A DNA stretch of 64,000 bases from a virus (IMGVR_UViG_2648501802_000002), one strand, 5' to 3'; shown: positions 964 to 62,448, numbered from the stretch's first letter. A program made the numbers and translations. Notes: generated by a model not told the origin, from the sequence alone.

Positions 964-1329
964 TTATGCTGCCTCTTTAATGTTGGCGGCTATCCATGCC
1001 GCCGTGTGCTGTTTAACCTGGTCCAGATCGATGTATGTGCCAACATATTGACTCAAGTCCTGCAACGTACCGATAAATGCATCGGTGCTCTGATCGACGA
1101 ATTTATCAGCCAGGAAATCAGCAACCAGTTTTGGCACACCATCATGTACCGAAGGTTGTTTTTCCTCGCCACTACCGCCGCCGGACGCGCCGTACCCCAT
1201 CTGTTGCATGATCTGGTCAATTTCATCGCTGATATCCAGCAACTCCATGCCACTCGCGGTAGCCGCTTTGGACATCAGAGCATCCAACTTATCGCTGAGA
1301 TCCATTAACTCAATAGCTGATAGTGTCAT
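964..1329 (-). CDS. Hypothetical small acidic protein (position of ddrA in a P1 dar-like operon)
   Basis: ORF track 121 aa; co-directional with and overlapping the stop of the upstream 639-aa gene. Confidence 0.5.
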   Translation of the reverse strand: MTLSAIELMDLSDKLDALMSKAATASGMELLDISDEIDQIMQQMGYGASGGGSGEEKQPSVHDGVPKLVADFLADKFVDQSTDAFIGTLQDLSQYVGTYIDLDQVKQHTAAWIAANIKEAA

Positions 1330-3245
1330 GCCGCTACCCCCGCTTTCTGGATTGCTACCAGCAGATCAGCCAGGTGGCGAGCTGCGCCGTTAACCAGCTC
1401 TTCGTTTTCCTCAAAACGTCCGGCAGCCTGAAGGGCTGCAATCGCTTCCCGGACATTGCCCCGGGCGTTACGGATCTCCGCCATGTCAGTGCTTTGTATA
1501 TCCATCACGTTATTGAGATATTCAATGGCTTTATTAGCCTCTGCATCTGCTTCGCTAACCGTTTCATCAGGCTGTGCCGGGGCCGGTTCTGGCTGAGTAA
1601 TCTCACCGACTTCGGCCTGCAATGCATTGATCATGCTCTGCACCATTTTCTCGGTGCCAGCGCCCCCAGGAAACGCAATATTGGGGAAAGTTTTTTGAAA
1701 CTGAGTTTTCAGCATTACGCGGAACTCGTCTGGTGAGCTGGTGGCCAGCTCCAGAGCTTTTTGTGCATATTTGCCAAACGGACCATTAGTAAGTGTCTTC
1801 GCCAGGAAGTCGAAAGAATCCTCGCGAGGCAATAACTTCAGGTCGTACTCACTCATTTGCTGATCAGAAAGCGGGGTATCGTAAGTAGCAATGCCGTAGC
1901 GTGCATATTCATAATACGGGTCACCTTCATCAGGGCGCGGCAGAATTGCTTTGTTACCTTCAGGTATTGCGCCAGGGGCCGCCGGACGCATTTGCAGGGC
2001 ATATCGATATGCACCTACAGAGACTTCTGGTTCAGGCGAAGAGCTACCGGTATCCTCCGCTGGTTCAGGCTCGACGTTTTCCGGTTTATGTTCTTCTGGT
2101 TGGACCAGGTATTCCGATACATTACCCGCTTTATAGGCTTTAAACAGCTTGCCGATCGCATCTGCCATGTCCACACCCTGTATGGATTTAGCCTTGATCA
2201 TGTATACGCTGCCATCCGGATCGGTTAACTGGATATACCCTTCGCCGCCCCCAATGAATTGCTTCATTGATGCACCATTACTGAGCGTCACTTCCCCGTC
2301 CATATGCATACGATTTTTGATACTGGCAAGGCGATCCGTCAGCGCGCGAGAGTGCCCACCAGTCATCCCCGCTGGAGCAATGGTATCGCGCCCACCAGTG
2401 CGATTGAGCTGATCAATCTCCGTCTGCAAACGCTCATTCTCTTCATAAAGAGAATCCGCTTCCGATGCAACAGCGTTAATTTTCTGCTCCAGATCTGCCT
2501 TCTGCCCTTCTACCGCTGCCACCTGATCCGCGAGGTCGCTCATGGCATCCTCTTTCTGGTCACTGTCAGCCTGTAGTTGGGTTATTTCATCAACAAGGGC
2601 TTTTTTCTTCTTCTGCGCACGCTGGAATTTTGCCGAGTTTTTCTCTGCAAGGTTGGCAAGTTTCATGGTGACCTGCGCCAGCGTCATATCACGTCCACTC
2701 ATCGGAGCAACGGTGTGAGTAACGTCTTTTTTATTCAGTAAGAACTGGAAAGCAACCAGCGTATCGCTATTGGTGATCCGGTTTTCCGCTGTCGGGCTAT
2801 GAAACAGAATGCTGATAGTCTGACCATCACTGAGCGGAATAATGGCTGGCAGGACTGGCAGCCCGTTAACGTTACGTGCCCGGCCAATTTCAGCGCCGCC
2901 GATCGCGCGCGCGCCGCTCTGGGCCACATCCCCCGTTTTATCACTCCCCGCAGAGATTCCGGTACCATTCAGCTTCTGGTTCAATGCCCGGACAAATGCC
3001 TGCATGGTCCGGTGTAACTGCAAACGAGTAGAACTAATCGCCTCCAATAAATCCGTAGCACACCAGTGGATCGGCGTGTCATAGAAGAACGTTGCCTCGA
3101 TTTCCTCCAGGGTGTTGGATTCCGTCATCAGATAGCGGTCCTGACCAGCCATTAATGCGCGATATTCATCATCAGTCACCGGCGGGGGAAGCACGTCAAG
3201 CCCCGGCTTAATCGTCACCCCTTTATTGATATTGAACTGTTCCAT
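1326..3245 (-). CDS. Large coiled-coil protein, candidate DarA-like antirestriction / internal virion protein
   Basis: ORF track 639 aa; central coiled-coil (LQADSDQKEDAMSDLADQVAAVEGQKADLEQK); shares a domain with the upstream 203-aa protein (DGQxIxI...KNSAKFQ). The size and the paralogous upstream fragment fit P1 hdf-darA from memory; not verified by alignment. Confidence 0.5.
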   Translation of the reverse strand: MEQFNINKGVTIKPGLDVLPPPVTDDEYRALMAGQDRYLMTESNTLEEIEATFFYDTPIHWCATDLLEAISSTRLQLHRTMQAFVRALNQKLNGTGISAGSDKTGDVAQSGARAIGGAEIGRARNVNGLPVLPAIIPLSDGQTISILFHSPTAENRITNSDTLVAFQFLLNKKDVTHTVAPMSGRDMTLAQVTMKLANLAEKNSAKFQRAQKKKKALVDEITQLQADSDQKEDAMSDLADQVAAVEGQKADLEQKINAVASEADSLYEENERLQTEIDQLNRTGGRDTIAPAGMTGGHSRALTDRLASIKNRMHMDGEVTLSNGASMKQFIGGGEGYIQLTDPDGSVYMIKAKSIQGVDMADAIGKLFKAYKAGNVSEYLVQPEEHKPENVEPEPAEDTGSSSPEPEVSVGAYRYALQMRPAAPGAIPEGNKAILPRPDEGDPYYEYARYGIATYDTPLSDQQMSEYDLKLLPREDSFDFLAKTLTNGPFGKYAQKALELATSSPDEFRVMLKTQFQKTFPNIAFPGGAGTEKMVQSMINALQAEVGEITQPEPAPAQPDETVSEADAEANKAIEYLNNVMDIQSTDMAEIRNARGNVREAIAALQAAGRFEENEELVNGAARHLADLLVAIQKAGVAA

Positions 3246-3246
3246 G

Positions 3247-3858
3247 TTAATTTCCTGCTTTCAGTTGCTTAAGACGGCGTTTGAGTTCGCCATTCCGTGC
3301 CTTTTCGTTATTGAGTCGGCCCGTCTCCTTATCCAACTTCGCCCGCAAATCTGTGATCTGCTGTTGATTGAAAGACACCGAATTCTGCGCGGACTTATAA
3401 GCGGCAACCACCTGAGCATTCCGCTGTTTTGCTTCTTGCAGGCGCTGAAAGTTGGATTTAACTGCCGGTTTCTTGTCTACCGGATTGGCAACACGCTTCG
3501 CTTTGGCGATCAGTGATTTCTGGAATTTCGCAGAGTTTTTGCGGGCCGCTTGCCCCATGACGGTACCAAGCGTCTTGATATCTGGCGACTGTGCGTTAGG
3601 AATAGATTTTCCATTCAGTTTCACAGCCGATATATCACCAGTATCGTTTACCTGTATGGCAAGAATTTGTCCGTCGTTAAGAACCAGTTTTGCGGTTTTA
3701 ACTTTAACGCCATCTTTCGTTGTTGCGCGGTTGCTGGAGTCAACCTCAATTACCGTAACACCGGTTTTATTGATCGCCGCGATAAGGGATTTCAGCCCCT
3801 TTTCATTAACCTGGTCAAAATCGACCGTTGCATACTTATTTTTCGTCATCTGACACAT
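3247..3858 (-). CDS. Hdf-like protein (homolog of a fragment of the 639-aa protein)
   Basis: ORF track 203 aa; motif ...LNDGQILAIQVND...ARKNSAKFQ matches ...LSDGQTISILFHS...AEKNSAKFQ in the downstream 639-aa protein. Confidence 0.5.
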   Translation of the reverse strand: MCQMTKNKYATVDFDQVNEKGLKSLIAAINKTGVTVIEVDSSNRATTKDGVKVKTAKLVLNDGQILAIQVNDTGDISAVKLNGKSIPNAQSPDIKTLGTVMGQAARKNSAKFQKSLIAKAKRVANPVDKKPAVKSNFQRLQEAKQRNAQVVAAYKSAQNSVSFNQQQITDLRAKLDKETGRLNNEKARNGELKRRLKQLKAGN

Positions 3859-4279
3859 CCTGTGCGAGATTTATTACGTAACTTCTGCGGATTTGCTGAG
3901 TAACAGGGAAAATCCGATACAACGGGTTAATGAACGAGTCGCCATGCGTAACCATGACGTTGAAATGCCACAGTCGCTCTCCTTTACCCATATATTCAGT
4001 GGGTATGTACAACCATTCACTGTTTTCGCCCTGTTCAGCCGACGTCAGACAACGTTGTTCGCCTTCAATCACTGTCGTCGGCTTCTGAACATCGCGGATC
4101 CAATATCTGACCGTTGCGCCGCGCAAAAACGGGAATTTAGACCGGTATTTGAACGGCACCCGAATGAAACCCGGTTTAATTTCCACATCACCAAGTTCTA
4201 AATGCGTGATGTCCTTGCGTTTTAGCAAATAGCGATCGGCTAAGGCTAACGCAAGAACGCATACACCCCAGCCAATCAT
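3836..4279 (-). CDS. Hypothetical protein (position of P1 lydB-like gene)
   Basis: ORF track 147 aa; overlaps neighbours in operon fashion. Confidence 0.45.
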   Translation of the reverse strand: MIGWGVCVLALALADRYLLKRKDITHLELGDVEIKPGFIRVPFKYRSKFPFLRGATVRYWIRDVQKPTTVIEGEQRCLTSAEQGENSEWLYIPTEYMGKGERLWHFNVMVTHGDSFINPLYRIFPVTQQIRRSYVINLAQDVSDDEK

Positions 4280-4605
4280 TTCCCACCTCCCTTTTTCACC
4301 AAACTTGTAAGAACATTCAGAATGCTATCGATATTCACTCGTTTCATCCCTGAAATCACCTCATGACCGTTATTGCTGGCTATCGTTACCATTAAGTACG
4401 TAATTGATAACTCCCAGCCTTCGTGTTGCCCCAATAGGTACGCCACCGCGCCAGCTGTCACTGCAACAAAGATCTCCGTAACCAATCCCAACAAGTTGCC
4501 AGACTGGCGACCATCTCGGACATCCATCAGGAACGTGCCTATCCCACCAATTACTGAAAGCAGGAGCGCAATAGCAACTGGAGCTAATTCCTGTGTGTCA
4601 AGCAC
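4276..4605 (-). CDS. Small membrane protein, holin-like (P1 LydA-like position)
   Basis: ORF track 109 aa; hydrophobic helices (VAIALLLSVIGGIGTFLM; IFVAVTAGAVAYLLG) and charged C-terminus; first gene of a co-directional operon. Confidence 0.45.
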   Translation of the reverse strand: MLDTQELAPVAIALLLSVIGGIGTFLMDVRDGRQSGNLLGLVTEIFVAVTAGAVAYLLGQHEGWELSITYLMVTIASNNGHEVISGMKRVNIDSILNVLTSLVKKGGGK

Positions 4606-4705
4606 AAGTTCCCTCCTACGTTGTCAGGAGGTAATGGTATGCAAAGTAACTTCTCAACCGGTCATGTTACTTGACATCCTCCACGTCCTTTAGAGCGTGG
4701 AGGAT

Positions 4706-5177
4706 GTGTGCGCCCAGCATGGGCGCGATCTTGGAGGTGAAAGCCCTCCCGCGAGCTGACCACAGCGAGCGAAAGGAAGTGCAACTGCGTGAGGGCGGCT
4801 AGGCGTGGGGAGGAAGCACGGAATGAACCCGTGAGCCGATGAACAAGAATCGGATATGAGGCGCGATGGAGCAAGGCGAGCAGGCACATCACTGCGAAGC
4901 TTTCGTGACAAAGTCGCGTAGATCCGACGGTTGTGCGGGGAAGGATCGCGTTCTTACCTGGGGAGTTCTCGCCTCATGCCTGAAAGGGCAACGTCGTAAG
5001 ACGGAGCGAGAAGTCAGCAGAGGCCGTAGTAGTCAGGACTCCGACGAAGGGCCGAACGAGAAGGAAAGCCAAAAGATATGACTCTTGACAGGACATTGCG
5101 TCAGAAGCCGGGGAAGCCCGGTACGGACCCGCATGCCGGGTGGTGTGGCAGGGGCGCAGCCTTGTGCTCCCCCCTAT
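4706..5177 (+). ncRNA. Candidate ORF-less group II intron-like structured RNA (possibly a decayed remnant)
   Basis: GC-rich segment with no credible ORF. Starts GTGCGCCCAGCATGGG (group II GUGYG 5' consensus, close to Ll.LtrB GUGCGCCCAGAUAGGG from memory) directly 3' of a perfect 11-bp hairpin (CATCCTCCACG-N10-CGTGGAGGATG, 4675-4706). Many GNRA-like loops; ends ...CUCCCCCCUAU (AY 3' end). No RT/IEP ORF, and I could not pick out an unambiguous domain V by eye. Confidence 0.3.
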
Positions 5178-5603
5178 GCCGATCAAGCAGAACATTGTGC
5201 TGGGCCTCTGACGCATCTCCTTGATGGTCTTGGCATCGTGCTTAAGTGGATTGGTGTCGTCTCTGATAGGCTCATGGAGGCAGAATGAAACTCAAAAATC
5301 CGGGACAGCACGCAAAACAGGCTGCACAAAAAGCGCAGGTTGCGTAGGAGTGGAATCCCGCTCCCAAAAAATGGTGCAGAAGTTGCGGCAGTGGTCATCC
5401 GACGCACTGGAAAATAACAAACCCGCCGTGACCAGAATCGGAGGCCTGAGGGAGTGACCGTAAAACCGGATAACCCAGGCAGCAAATACCCGCTGGATGA
5501 GGCATGGTTCCGGCAGATAATACCGAAAACCGCCAGACACACTGGATAATCAGTAGAAATAACCCATTAAAATCATTATAATAATTGGGCACATTATTAT
5601 ATT

Positions 5604-6167
5604 ATGCTGAATAATAGAGACATGAATATTAATGAACTTAAAGACTGTATTCACTATGAAGTAATCGGTAGCGAGCGTCCTTTCTCCTGGCGAAAGGCAA
5701 TTGTTCGCGCAATAAAACATAGAAGAGTTCGTTATTTATTTTGGTGGCGCATAGCCAAATACCTTTTTGATAAAGGCGGATACTGTCGGAAGATTGCGGG
5801 GAAAATGGAACGTTTCATTCTTGATAAATATAGTGTAACAGTCCCTTTAACTGTAAATATAGGGAAAGGCTTTGATATTTCTTATCTCAACGGTGTTGTT
5901 ATCGGTCACAAAGTAACCATTGGTGAAAATTGTTCAATAAAACCAGGGGTAACTATTGGGCTACGTGGTGATTTTAATGATATGGATATTGTTATAGGAC
6001 ATAATGTGACCATTGGTTGTAATGCCACCATTCTTGGTGGCAAAGTGCGTATAGGAAACAATGTCACAATAGGTGCTCATGCATTGGTATTGCATGATAT
6101 TCCTGATGATTCAACATTCATCACTAAATTTCAGTCTGAAGTTATCTGCTCGTCCTCTTGCACATAA
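5604..6167 (+). CDS. Hexapeptide-repeat (left-handed beta-helix) acetyltransferase, WcaF/LacA-like; moron
   Basis: ORF track 187 aa; hexapeptide repeats ([22 protein letters not shown]...[33 protein letters not shown]); AT-rich island; convergent with tfa; TATAAT-like box near 5577. Confidence 0.8.
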
Positions 6168-39751: not shown

Positions 39752-41227
39752 TTAGGAGCGCCAAAAAAAACCTGAAAACAATATAATAACAGGATAAATT
39801 TCAAGGCGACCAAGAATCATAGCTATGCACATTAAACATTTTGCAATGTCATTAAGCACTCCGAATGACGATGCAGTAGCCCCAAAACCTAATCCCATAT
39901 TATTAATACATGCAGCCACTGTTGCAAATGATGTAAGAAAATCATATCCCATACCATTTAACACCAGTATAAAAAACACCGTGAAGAGAGTATAAAGAAA
40001 AAAGAAACTCCATACAGACCTCATTACACGATCTGTAACTATCTTCCCTCCTACATTTACACTCAACAACGCTCTGGGATGAGAAAGCTGATTTATCTCG
40101 TGTTTGCTTTGTTTGAAAAGTATAAGAAATCGAAGTGACTTAATTCCACCACAAGTTGAACCTATACATCCCCCAAAGAAACTTGACAACAGCAAAAACA
40201 CTATCGTGTGCGTGGGCCAACTTGCATAATCCTGCGTAGCTAAACCATTATCAGTGAGCATGGAGCTGGCAAGAAAAAACGAATGAATAAAACTTCCATG
40301 CAAGTCATACATACCTATATGCCAGACCTGGAAAGAGGTAACAATGATCACCCCTAAGGCTATTAACAGAAAGAAACGAAGTTCAATATCTCTGATTAAA
40401 GGTTTTATCGTTTTCCTGCTAATAACAATATACCAAAGAGTGAAGTTGAAAGCCGATAGCAGGGAAAAAGAACCAGCCACCAGCTCAACCAAATAGTTAT
40501 TAAAATATCCGATACTCTCGCTATGAGTTGAGAAACCACCAAGCGAAACTGTGGAAATCCCGTGACAAATAGCATCAAACAAAGGCATTCCTGCAAGTCT
40601 ATAACAGACAATACAAGCAATACCTAATAAAGAATAAGTTATCCACAGTGTCCGTGACGTATCGGCCAGGCGGGGAGTGAGTTTGTCATCCTTAAATGGC
40701 CCCGGCATTTCTGACTGATAAAGCTTTGCACCACCAATACCCAATAATGGCAATACAGCAACCGCCAGAACAATAACTCCTAAACCACCTATAAAATTTA
40801 ACTGTGACCGATAGTACAAATATGCCCGAGGTAATGAACTAACATCATCAATTACAGTTGCTCCTGTTGTTGTTATTCCAGAAACCCCTTCAAACAGAGC
40901 ATCAATGAACGTTAAATTAAGTTCTGAGTCAATCCATAAAGGGAATGCACTAATAACAGAAAACAAAATCCAAAACATTACAATTATAATAAACCCATCA
41001 CGGGTACGTAATTGAATGCCAGATTTCTTAGTTGTATACCACGCTCCGCCACCAATGCAAAAAAATATAACGAAAGTTATAAAGAAAACGAACAGGCTTT
41101 TTTCTTTATAAAACAATGCTACAACCATTGGTGGCAACATTGAAAGACTATAGAGCCAAACCAGGAACCCACACATATGAGTAACAACTCTTACATGAGA
41201 TGTATTCATATCTAAATATTCTTTCAA
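39752..41227 (-). CDS. trkG: TrkH/TrkG-family potassium uptake membrane protein (Rac prophage TrkG)
   Basis: ORF track 491 aa; polytopic membrane protein with repeated selectivity-filter-like glycines (SGITTTGATV, GGLGV, LGGFST); AT-rich moron in the position Rac has trkG after rz. Confidence 0.85.
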   Translation of the reverse strand: MKEYLDMNTSHVRVVTHMCGFLVWLYSLSMLPPMVVALFYKEKSLFVFFITFVIFFCIGGGAWYTTKKSGIQLRTRDGFIIIVMFWILFSVISAFPLWIDSELNLTFIDALFEGVSGITTTGATVIDDVSSLPRAYLYYRSQLNFIGGLGVIVLAVAVLPLLGIGGAKLYQSEMPGPFKDDKLTPRLADTSRTLWITYSLLGIACIVCYRLAGMPLFDAICHGISTVSLGGFSTHSESIGYFNNYLVELVAGSFSLLSAFNFTLWYIVISRKTIKPLIRDIELRFFLLIALGVIIVTSFQVWHIGMYDLHGSFIHSFFLASSMLTDNGLATQDYASWPTHTIVFLLLSSFFGGCIGSTCGGIKSLRFLILFKQSKHEINQLSHPRALLSVNVGGKIVTDRVMRSVWSFFFLYTLFTVFFILVLNGMGYDFLTSFATVAACINNMGLGFGATASSFGVLNDIAKCLMCIAMILGRLEIYPVIILFSGFFWRS

Positions 41228-43746: not shown

Positions 43747-44682
43747 TTTTCCTCACATATGTCATATAGTAAAGGATTATATATACCGTTGTTTTGGACG
43801 CTCAAACAGCGAATCAGATCAAATAAAACGCACATTTGTTAACATTTACACAAAGTCTGCGTGGGATATTCTGAAAGAATATCCATAATGTGGAGAGAAT
43901 CTATTGAAGTGCATGGTGCCGGGTGCCTCCCGGTGAACAAAATGTTCGTGATACCTGTCGGCGACAGAAAAGGTTAATGGTATCACCCCACCGCACAGGG
44001 GGATTCACCATGCAGGAGTTTTCTTAGCAAACTCACTGCGCGCCCGGCAACTCCCAACCACATAAAATGCGGAGTTTGTGGTATTTATGCATATAACTCG
44101 CAGGAATTATCTTAAAAAACTGATGTCGATCCGGATTAAAAAGAAGCAGGTCATCATCAGATGACTGGAAAAAAGGAAAACAAAAAATACTCATCATACA
44201 GTTTTGATTGCAGGGATGAGCCTGCTATGCACAATATGCAGAATATAAGCAAGATAAAAATATGCAGGCATATTATTTCGGATTTTGTTATTAACACAAC
44301 CTTTTTAATAATCATTTGGCATACAATAAACCAGCCCAAAAAGAACCGCCTAAACAGGCGGTTGGTCAATACAAAGGATGCTTCGTCTTTATTATAGTAA
44401 TCTGAGGCGTCGAGTGTCTTGTATCAGACAACATATTGTCCCGCTAAACAGCGAATTACAAACCACCCTGCAATGATCTCTCATCTCATTTTATATGAGT
44501 TGACGACATCAGGATAACGCATCATCAGCCCCTGCCAAGAAATATCAAAACTCCCGCCAGCAATGTGTTATCACAATATTGTAAAAAAAACACAGCACCG
44601 AAACTATAACTGGTCTCTGTTATAATTTGGAGCAGAAAGACCAGTTGCCCAACTAGCAGCATTCTCCCCTGCTTTCCTGACG

Positions 44683-44712
44683 TAAAAAAACCGCATTGAG
44701 CGGTTTTTTTAC
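44683..44712. terminator. Bidirectional intrinsic terminator downstream of the Q-like gene (tR'-like)
   Basis: AAAAAAACCGC-ATTGA-GCGGTTTTTTT perfect hairpin flanked by A- and T-runs, about 80 bp downstream of the Q-like stop. Confidence 0.65.
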
Positions 44713-44790
44713 GATGTCCATGTCTGCAATCCGCCTCGCGATACAGCTTTACGAAGCATAGCAAAATTGAAGCAGTTTATACGTAAGAAA

Positions 44791-62072: not shown

Positions 62073-62267
62073 ATGCGGTATGAAAAAGTCAAACCATGCC
62101 CTTTTTGTGGTTGTCTATCAGTAACGGTAAAAGCCATTTCAGGATATTACCGCGCGAAGTGTAACGGATGCGAATCCCGAACCGGCTATGGTGGAAGTGA
62201 AAAAGAAGCACTCGAACGATGGAATAAACGAACCACTGGAAATAATAATGGAGGTGTTCATGTATAA
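62073..62267 (+). CDS. ralR: Restriction alleviation protein RalR (Lar family zinc ribbon)
   Basis: ORF track 62058..62267; MRYEKVKPCPFCGC...AKCNGCESRTGYGGSEKEALERWNKR; CxxC...CxxC. Confidence 0.8.
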   Translation: MRYEKVKPCPFCGCLSVTVKAISGYYRAKCNGCESRTGYGGSEKEALERWNKRTTGNNNGGVHV

Positions 62268-62448
62268 AATTACCGCCACTATTGAAAAGGAAGGTGGCAC
62301 TCCTACTAACTGGACAAGGTACTCAAAAACAAAATTAACCAAATCAGAATGCGAAAAAATGCTCTCAGGTAAAAAAGAAGCAGGCGGTTCCAGAGAGCAG
62401 AAAGTAAAACTGATAAATTTTAATTGCGAGAAACTTCAGTCGTCGTGA
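62260..62448 (+). CDS. ydaC: YdaC-like small protein
   Basis: ORF track 62188..62448; start placed at the ATG preceded by GGAGG (MYKITATIEKEGG...), overlapping the ralR stop. Confidence 0.5.
   Translation: MYKITATIEKEGGTPTNWTRYSKTKLTKSECEKMLSGKKEAGGSREQKVKLINFNCEKLQSS

Follow-up and report, generated by a model that had tools for sequence, protein, structure and literature searches.

A predicted group IIC intron remnant beside the late promoter of P1-like phage-plasmids

The stretch of DNA analysed here (64,000 nucleotides, referred to as the window) belongs to a P1-like phage-plasmid and carries the darA, hdf, lydB and lydA genes on the minus strand at 1326-4605. Homology to phage P1 continues through the late promoter LPdar and ends near 4665. 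Beyond this point P1 harbors lydC and cin, whereas in the window a hairpin is followed by about 0.9 kb free of annotated genes and then by a gene encoding a hexapeptide acetyltransferase. The nature and origin of this segment, on which nothing specific was found in the literature on P1-like plasmids, is the question raised by the locus. A preliminary description, made from the sequence, had proposed that it holds a class C group II intron devoid of its ORF.

The general properties then reported for the segment hold. Its GC content is 0.55-0.615 over 4600-5400, against 0.34-0.50 in the flanks, and the RefSeq entries of homologous plasmids show no CDS from the holin to the acetyltransferase, in agreement with the view that about 0.9 kb lacks a credible ORF; the longest ORF in the segment (119 aa, minus strand) has no Pfam match. 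A 20-codon ORF with a GGAGG motif does occur at 5285-5347, as had been noted, and is unlikely to be a gene, because a 1-nt indel shifts its frame after codon 8 in intron-free sister plasmids. The layout of the locus is as follows.

4674-4707, plus strand: hairpin of the 5' exon, with a perfect 12-bp stem, a 10-nt loop and no T-run, older than the intron
4703-4707, plus strand: predicted IBS1 (GAUGU), which ends the 5' exon and falls within the hairpin's 3' arm, with 5/5 Watson-Crick pairs to EBS1
4708-5183, plus strand: predicted group IIC intron remnant of 476 nt, GUGCG...CUAUGCCGAU, without an IEP ORF, delimited by empty-site alignment
5184-5603, without strand: 3' exon or spacer outside the intron, GC-rich and unannotated, present at empty sites too
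5604-6167, plus strand: hexapeptide acetyltransferase gene

Boundaries of the insertion and the hairpin preceding it

Comparison with intron-free loci provided the exact ends of the element. Two sister P1-like plasmids (NZ_CP033848.1 and CP054337.1) have an empty site reading ...GGATGT/CAAGCAG..., that is ...CGTGGAGGATGT/CAAGCAGAAC..., or over a further stretch ...CGTGGAGGATGT/CAAGCAGAACATTGTGCTGGG..., with the slash marking the point of insertion and no target-site duplication. Since these plasmids carry the unoccupied site, the 476 nt represent a precise insertion. The group II GUGYG start recognized earlier is indeed present as GTGCG at 4708-4712, immediately 3' of the stem, and BLAST matches to full-length introns of Vibrio, Sinorhizobium, Burkholderia and Ralstonia all begin at this motif. 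The 3' end had been placed at ...CUCCCCCCUAU (about 5176), which is 7 nt short; according to the empty-site alignment the true end is ...CCCCCUAUGCCGAU at 5183, with a terminal AU of the AY type at 5182-5183.

The hairpin consists of the arms ACATCCTCCACG (4674-4685) and CGTGGAGGATGT (4696-4707). It had been described as a perfect stem of 11 bp at 4675-4706; the stem is real and perfect, but 12 bp long, and T4707, previously assigned to the space between hairpin and GTGCG, is its final paired base. Perfect stems of at least 11 bp with loops of 3-12 nt occur at three loci in the 64-kb window, against 0.22 expected by chance from 100 Markov simulations of the window. The hairpin is also present at the empty sites (L008, L009) and in pMUB-MIN10-2, in the latter overlapping the end of a minus-strand DUF1353 gene (last 5 codons and stop). 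Given that no T-run follows, the hairpin is not a terminator. Thus, the proposed insertion just 3' of a terminator-like hairpin is correct as to position, directly behind the 12-bp stem, and not as to the terminator.

Also, the occurrence in pMUB-MIN10-2 raised the idea that the intron had divided a DUF1353 gene, to which the minus-strand ORF at 5186-5542 would belong. The idea was rejected: the ORF has neither a Pfam match nor BLASTP similarity, and the 3' flank is unchanged at empty sites; no gene is interrupted by the intron at 4708-5183. This 420-bp flank (5184-5603) occurs in about 37 P1-like plasmids only and is absent from every phage record searched. It has no Pfam or Rfam match, and as a candidate structured RNA its fold is not unusual (z-scores of -1.15 and -1.42).

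Ribozyme domains and affiliation with class IIC

Two covariance models match the element, and the following features were located there.

4789-4953, plus strand: domain I core, matching RF02001 (group-II-D1D4-3) with 95.5 bits (gathering score 32, E=1.4e-19)
4811-4815, plus strand: AGGAA epsilon' motif, aligned to the AGGAA of the RF02001 consensus
4886-4890, plus strand: predicted EBS1 (ACAUC), in the loop GCACAUCA of the hairpin 4880-4895, placed by covariation
4908-4909, plus strand: point at which 6 nt are missing from a domain I helix, in the plasmid sub-lineage of the window only
4971-5052, plus strand: domain II/III region, matching RF01998 (group-II-D1D4-1) with 46.8 bits (gathering score 35)

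On the strength of these matches, the exact boundaries against the empty site and the class hallmarks given below, the segment at 4708-5183 of the plus strand is identified as a group II intron of bacterial class C (IIC), reduced to a 476-nt remnant, as first suggested for a site 3' of the hairpin. The outcome of the covariance search was in part negative: RF02001 and RF01998 exceed their gathering scores, but no match to RF00029 (domain V/VI) was obtained at E<=1. The missing match is uninformative as a refutation, because the nearest intact full-length relative (L004, plasmid pVb0267) likewise gives none at E<=10; an absent Rfam domain V match cannot serve to reject IIC introns. The intact intron scores 121.6 bits with RF02001, against 95.5 for the window. 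In addition, the intron folds more stably than shuffled versions of itself (z-score of -2.76).

That the segment is no intron at all, and instead the remains of a protein-coding gene or a spacer that is GC-rich by chance, has next to no probability. Spurious ORFs of 48-80 codons do overlap it. The 48-codon ORF, starting at 5078, is not the IEP and has no Pfam domain at or above the gathering cut-off. The Rfam match (E = 1e-19), the exact excision boundaries against empty sites and the alignment of domain V rule out a gene or spacer, and the homology to 80 full-length introns covers their RNA parts and not their ORF.

These relatives were sampled as 80 loci encoding relatives of the pVb0267 IEP. 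The nearest intact intron, 1,830 nt long, lies downstream of traA in the IncC plasmid pVb0267 (NZ_MF627444; L004:4002-5831), and the window is 81.5% identical to it over 4709-5065 and 97.5% over 5116-5155 (domain V). Its IEP contains the RVT_1 and GIIM domains only, with no endonuclease domain. This intron forms part of a proteobacterial IIC clade, with members in Paraburkholderia xenovorans LB400, Massilia, Tepidimonas and megaplasmids of Sinorhizobium meliloti, that shares its ends (5' GUGCGCCCAG, 3' CCCCUAUGCCGAU) and the position of the EBS1 loop with the window. Clade members encode a 455-aa RT/maturase and have an invariant domain V, canonical terminators and A-rich EBS1 loops, whereas the window copy has an ACAUC EBS1, no ORF and a damaged domain V. 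Nearly all of the 66 full-length relatives scored lie 0-8 nt after a GC hairpin with a T-run (mean dG of -20.5 kcal/mol), and a few directly follow domain VI of another copy.

The exon-binding register was derived from 49 distinct relatives, in which exon positions -1 to -5 have their partners in the five loop nucleotides that follow 'GC'. Pairing reaches a mean of 4.12/5, against 2.89 +/- 0.12 with loops shuffled among loci, and none of 10,000 shuffles attained the observed mean. In the window this register sets ACAUC (4886-4890) opposite GAUGU (4703-4707), with all five positions paired. An EBS3-IBS3 pairing was not recovered: in 50 relatives the first base of the 3' exon showed no covariation with any column of domain I (best value 0.66, in invariant columns). 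The small domain I suggests that EBS2 is absent.

Class IIC introns are characterized by abbreviated size, a domain V distal stem 2 bp shorter than in IIA/IIB, a CGC triad in place of AGC, an AGGAA sequence in epsilon', a short EBS1-IBS1 pairing, no EBS2 and insertion after terminators or other inverted repeats (PMC1702495). With the class members B.h.I1 (Bacillus halodurans) and O.i.I1 (Oceanobacillus iheyensis), described by Toor et al. 2006 (PMC1702495), the window shares the small ribozyme, the insertion at a stem-loop, AGGAA, the 3-bp distal stem of domain V and its 2-nt bulge, and the exon pairing demonstrated for it is the short EBS1-IBS1 only. The CGC triad and endonuclease-free IEP of that class are matched by the relatives of the window and not by the window copy, which differs further by having no IEP ORF and by the deletion of domain V basal pairs and of the first triad base. 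Another departure concerns the target. The hairpin is not a rho-independent terminator, and IBS1 lies in its stem and not in a T-tract 3-11 nt downstream; lacking a T-run, it is counted as an 'other inverted repeat' in the wording of PMC1702495. Because the missing T-run and the position of IBS1 inside the stem set the site apart from those of relatives, its recognition by the intron is assumed by analogy.

Loss of the RT gene and state of domains V and VI

As reported earlier, the intron has no RT ORF: a tblastn search of the whole window with the IEP of a relative yielded no match below E=1. A search for a close full-length copy in E. coli came no nearer than L006 (94.5% identity), located on plasmid pRHBSTW-00014_2 (CP056903.1), in which the beginning of the IEP is preserved; it is itself truncated at the 5' end, frameshifted in the IEP and cut by IS66. 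The 3' part of the window intron was mapped against L006 for domain IV, and against L004 and L005 for domain V.

5066-5114, plus strand: 5' half of domain IV, equivalent to what lies ahead of the IEP start codon in the closest relative, and identical to L006 up to 5114
5115-5121, plus strand: deletion junction with A+GCCCGG microhomology; left homology ends at 5114 and right homology begins at 5116
5113-5144, plus strand: domain V, damaged, from the RNAalifold consensus of 63 sequences (13 pairs)
5146-5181, plus strand: domain VI with the bulged candidate branch-point A5176, from the RNAalifold consensus

In L006 the IEP (MGSEGEV...; RVT_1) starts 14 nt further on than the equivalent of 5114. 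GCCCGG is found twice, in domain IV (L006 ...GGGGATAGCCCGGGCG...) and in the 5' strand of domain V (...GAACCGCCCGGUGCGG...), and the three sequences read as follows.

L006, domain IV: ...CAGAAGCCGGGGATAGCCCGGGCGCATC-ATG(IEP)...
Window, at the junction: ...CAGAAGCCGGGGAAGCCCGGUACGGACCCGC...
Full-length introns, start of domain V: ...CGAACCGCCCGGUGCGGACCCGC...

This comparison shows the deletion junction, at which the two GCCCGG repeats have been joined. About 1.35 kb was removed: the IEP was lost altogether, along with the 3' half of domain IV and the very beginning of domain V. Of the two terms offered before, 'ORF-less or decayed', the absence of the ORF stands and 'decayed' is the better word, since the element is a deletion derivative with a clipped domain V and not a naturally ORF-less design.

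The ORF may instead have been lost at cDNA synthesis, if the RT jumped between the GCCCGG repeats on an intact donor RNA during retrohoming. The 6-nt direct repeat at the junction fits template switching and replication slippage or recombination equally, and every known copy at the locus is deleted, no full-length intron at the P1-like site having been recovered among the E. coli genomes, IMG/VR and metagenome matches. A microhomology deletion at the DNA level that became fixed early would leave an indistinguishable pattern. Other E. coli remnants of the lineage (L007, L091, L006 and L005) carry differing internal deletions and truncations, and because of these differences decay at the DNA level is seen to be common in the lineage. 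Loss by template jump is regarded as unlikely, though it deserves to be kept in mind, and a deletion in DNA is preferred.

Domain V of the relatives has the form A-CCGCCCGGU-GCG-GACC-CGC-AU-GCCGGGUGG-U, invariant in 59 full-length relatives. RNAalifold analysis of 63 sequences resolved it into a 13-bp helix with a 2-nt bulge, a 3-bp distal stem with a 4-nt loop and a CGC triad, the G of which forms a G-U pair in the consensus. In the window three of the 13 pairs are broken, by the mispairs A5114xG5143, A5115xG5142 and A5123xC5132. In none of the other sequences among the 63 are column pairs 9/38 and 10/37 occupied by A-G, or 18/27 by A-C. The first two pairs are basal, 10/37 (C-G in 61 of the 63 sequences) holding the first triad nucleotide, and 18/27 belongs to the 3-bp distal stem; all the positions affected are invariant in the 59 full-length relatives. 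As the deletion replaced the first C of CGC, the triad of the window is AGC (5115-5117), with its first base unpaired. The 2-nt bulge (A5133, U5134), the 3-bp distal stem and the GACC loop are kept.

Domain VI is supported by a compensatory change from C-G to G-C at columns 44/80 (41 versus 22 sequences). Both domains V and VI, for which a foldable structure had been anticipated, can therefore be recognized, and domain VI keeps its bulged A at the expected 7-8 nt from the 3' end, but domain V has lost 3/13 of its pairs. By eye, the distal stem of domain VI has one mismatch relative to the E. coli relatives L005 and L007.

Distribution, divergence and probable history

The occurrence of the element was analyzed in complete genomes, plasmids and environmental contigs. 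Copies numbered 29 in complete genomes of E. coli and about 37 in the plasmids of PLSDB. All 29 of the E. coli genomes covering the query contain the same ORF-less form at the same locus, and the exact 28-mer of the deletion junction was retrieved from only three IMG/VR contigs and one metagenome contig, all colinear with the window over 4500-5700. A second plasmid lineage, represented by pET6.1-IncY, has an identical junction and domain V. This plasmid and L006 retain GTCAAGTCG at the site of the 6-nt deletion (4908-4909).

Between the window and the second plasmid lineage, the intron differs by 9 substitutions in 476 nt (1.89%) plus 2 indels and the noncoding 3' flank by 7 in 377 (1.86%), an argument for a neutral rate that rests on few substitutions, because two diverged plasmid lineages are being compared. 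The intron has thus diverged at the same rate as its neutral flank, as expected of a sequence under neutral, vertical inheritance.

Other genomic contexts of the lineage were inspected for signs of further movement. A second homing into the same hairpin was considered for the ccdB-sopA context (L007, L092) and set aside, as 4,258 matching plasmids provided no empty-site counterpart, and for the L091 context, where only half of the hairpin is kept. Both contexts are best read as DNA-level rearrangements that would have moved exon and intron together.

Taken together, the data make it highly probable that the element is the relic of one IIC retrohoming event, inactivated by deletion and carried vertically by a sub-clade of P1-like plasmids. 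The target would have been the 12-bp hairpin, which in the P1-like phage-plasmid immediately precedes the late promoter LPdar/lydA. To judge from the anatomy of the site and the biology of class IIC, the intron RNP may have recognized the stem-loop together with the 5-nt IBS1 (GAUGU paired to EBS1 ACAUC). The exact ends and the EBS1-IBS1 match suggest reverse splicing after T4707 and subsequent copying into DNA. The deletion of about 1.35 kb then joined a GCCCGG repeat in domain IV, 14 nt before the start codon of the IEP, to the one in the 5' strand of domain V. It left domains I-III and VI, one half of domain IV and a domain V with 3/13 pairs broken. This remnant would have been passed on neutrally and vertically as a passive passenger in one P1-like plasmid sub-clade. 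As it lacks an IEP in cis and its catalytic helix is damaged, the intron most likely neither splices nor moves. Domains I-III and VI are largely intact, and some residual splicing by hydrolysis, or activity with an IEP acting in trans, is conceivable.

A different proposal, that of a functional, non-autonomous ORF-less IIC intron spliced and/or mobilized by an IEP acting in trans from another intron of the host, is considered improbable. Domains I-III score well above the Rfam thresholds, domain VI has its bulged A, the fold is more stable than shuffles, EBS1 still matches IBS1 perfectly and AGC is the canonical triad of IIA/IIB and most group II introns. Moreover, trans-moving ORF-less introns are documented (PMC2882425), and the host chromosome could encode a related IEP. 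These points are opposed by the three broken pairs of domain V, one of which holds the first triad nucleotide and all of which are invariant in 59 full-length relatives, by the loss of the domain IV 3' strand and by a divergence equal to that of the noncoding flank. Also, the junction is confined to a single locus across E. coli genomes, IMG/VR and metagenomes, and there is no RT in the window and no close IEP on E. coli plasmids among the matches listed: 96 of 1,522 PLSDB records match the IEP at 60% identity or more (the organism tally covers all identities together), and none of the 30 best of the 1,522 is an E. coli plasmid with an IEP more than 60% identical.

Slightly less credit still is given to a bolder scenario, by which an enterobacterial IIC branch would have switched its target to one non-terminator hairpin, with the 3' arm serving as IBS1 and EBS1 ACAUC copying the ACAUC of the 5' arm, and in which the 476-nt derivative with its AGC triad would still be reactive with an IEP in trans. 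If correct, P1-like phages would carry a natural minimal IIC ribozyme and a sequence-specific hairpin homing site.

That the plasmid has co-opted the remnant as a cis element, whether to start, insulate or end transcription between the dar/lyd late operon and the gene for the acetyltransferase or to provide a stable structured RNA, is very improbable. The element is retained in all members of the plasmid sub-clade, on the same strand as the downstream acetyltransferase gene, and outward-facing promoters are known in IIC-attC introns (PMC3001079). However, no sigma-70-like and no terminator-like site was found on the plus strand inside the intron; promoter-like sites occur only at 5554-5615, beside the acetyltransferase gene and outside the intron. 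Gene order is the same in the intron-free sister plasmids, and divergence proceeds at the neutral rate, with lineage-specific indels in helices.

Degraded copies of group II introns are frequent among Enterobacteriales. A survey of these bacteria recorded 111 group II intron fragments (55 distinct) in 90 genomes, and argues that fragment copies were inactivated before spreading (Leclercq & Cordaux 2012, PMC3522654). The fragments described there resemble the window copy in being degraded, non-proliferating copies on mobile elements; the window copy is internally deleted and not truncated, as both exact ends are kept. The P1-like/LPdar locus and this IIC lineage were not met with where that paper and its supplements mention parC, ygiV, 'terminator' or two strain names.

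Mobilization of ORF-less group II introns in trans is described for Thermosynechococcus elongatus (Mohr et al. 2010, PMC2882425). Those introns share with the window copy both ends, most ribozyme domains and the lack of a domain IV ORF, but they are multicopy and dispersed over different sites, have an undamaged domain V and share the genome with helper IEPs, whereas the window copy occupies one site, with a damaged domain V and no helper detected (no RT in the window).

The element is an ordinary mobile-element relic and not a new kind of RNA, having lost the RT gene and part of the catalytic hairpin. As such it is a new, well-delimited example of a degraded group II intron, involving no new mechanism or RNA class, and accounts for about 0.5 kb that had gone unannotated, as 'intergenic' DNA, in P1-like phage-plasmids of a widespread group. 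It also offers a natural example in which one microhomology deletion yields a delta-ORF intron and, presumably, kills the ribozyme. Mildly unusual are the non-terminator hairpin with IBS1 in its stem and the single deletion that takes the ORF and clips domain V. Presence or absence of the intron provides a clean marker of one plasmid sub-clade.

Plasmid contexts of the intron lineage

Besides the window, the lineage of the group IIC intron was recovered in the following plasmid contexts:

L007:3003-3321 and L092, a second mini-derivative of the same lineage (plasmids p504211_50 and pEsST2350_SE_2)
L091:2500-2762, a lineage context on plasmid pP136-4
L006:3001-4400, a lineage context on plasmid pRHBSTW-00014_2, adjoining aafD
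L093:2501-2571, a domain V-VI remnant of 71 bp with 84.5% identity (plasmid p1-H9 and many similar plasmids)

The second mini-derivative, carried by about 30 PLSDB plasmids, is flanked by a ccdB remnant and sopA and consists of the 5' 175 nt fused to the 3' 110 nt, differing in this from the form found in the window. A decayed copy of the window's hairpin (CATCCTCCACG...TGTGTAGGATGT) is located upstream, and no empty site was found for the ccdB-sopA context. The pP136-4 intron breaks off after about 260 nt and has just the hairpin's 3' half upstream of it. The copy in pRHBSTW-00014_2 is truncated at the 5' end, and its intron-encoded protein (IEP, the RT/maturase) carries a frameshift and is interrupted by IS66. 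The remnant in p1-H9 lies against the 3' terminus of a bcsC gene carried by the plasmid, next to IS3 elements. The same 5' exon accompanies an intron of this lineage in unrelated plasmids, suggesting that the ancestral locus has been shuffled at the DNA level.

Chromosomal remnants and tandem insertions

A copy of the lineage was also identified in a chromosome, and full-length relatives as adjacent insertions:

L005:2830-3068, a 3' remnant of the IIC lineage of about 240 bp in the ygiV-parC intergenic region of the E. coli FORC_082 chromosome
L032:~1830-1880, L054:353-440 and L079:~1415-1500, relatives whose insertion point immediately follows another copy's ...CCCCUAUNCCGAU end

The chromosomal remnant comprises the final codons of the IEP, a domain V in which one pair is mismatched, and domain VI, and its terminus reads ...CUAUGCCGAU|CAAG. 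The 72-bp domain V-VI core has about 1,376 chromosomal matches in 5,426 complete E. coli genomes (84.5-92% identity), at places that carry no annotated feature. Among the full-length relatives, the preceding copy's domain VI appears to act as target hairpin for the intron that follows, producing tandem IIC insertions.

The hairpin border and the downstream spacer

The same hairpin as in the window is present in a further P1-like plasmid:

L003:3006-3038, plasmid pMUB-MIN10-2

Here a DUF1353 gene encoded on the minus strand shares its five final codons (TSSTP) and its stop with the hairpin. To the right of the hairpin, the sequence bears no relation to the window; therefore, the hairpin is the border between the conserved lyd/dar block and the variable tail-fibre/host-range block.

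The 420-bp spacer 3' of the intron (window 5184-5603) is GC-rich (~0.53-0.56), has an unremarkable folding energy and was detected in only about 37 P1-like plasmids. It contains no RefSeq-annotated CDS and has no match in Pfam, Rfam or phage records. The 20-codon ORF that the preliminary description had pointed out (5285-5347, preceded by GGAGG) stays in frame only through codon 8 in both intron-free sister plasmids (L008 and L009; NZ_CP033848.1 and CP054337.1).

Other structured elements of the window

Two RNAs gave Rfam gathering-level matches elsewhere in the window:

62266-62444, minus strand, RalA (antitoxin sRNA of RalR), 212.5 bits
43857-44043, minus strand, STnc100, 86.6 bits

Apart from the hairpin at 4674-4707, the whole window has perfect hairpins with stems of 11 bp or more only at 41078-41110 and 44681-44713. 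Both are A/T-rich, and the latter (AAAAAAACCGC...GCGGTTTTTTT) looks like a bidirectional terminator.
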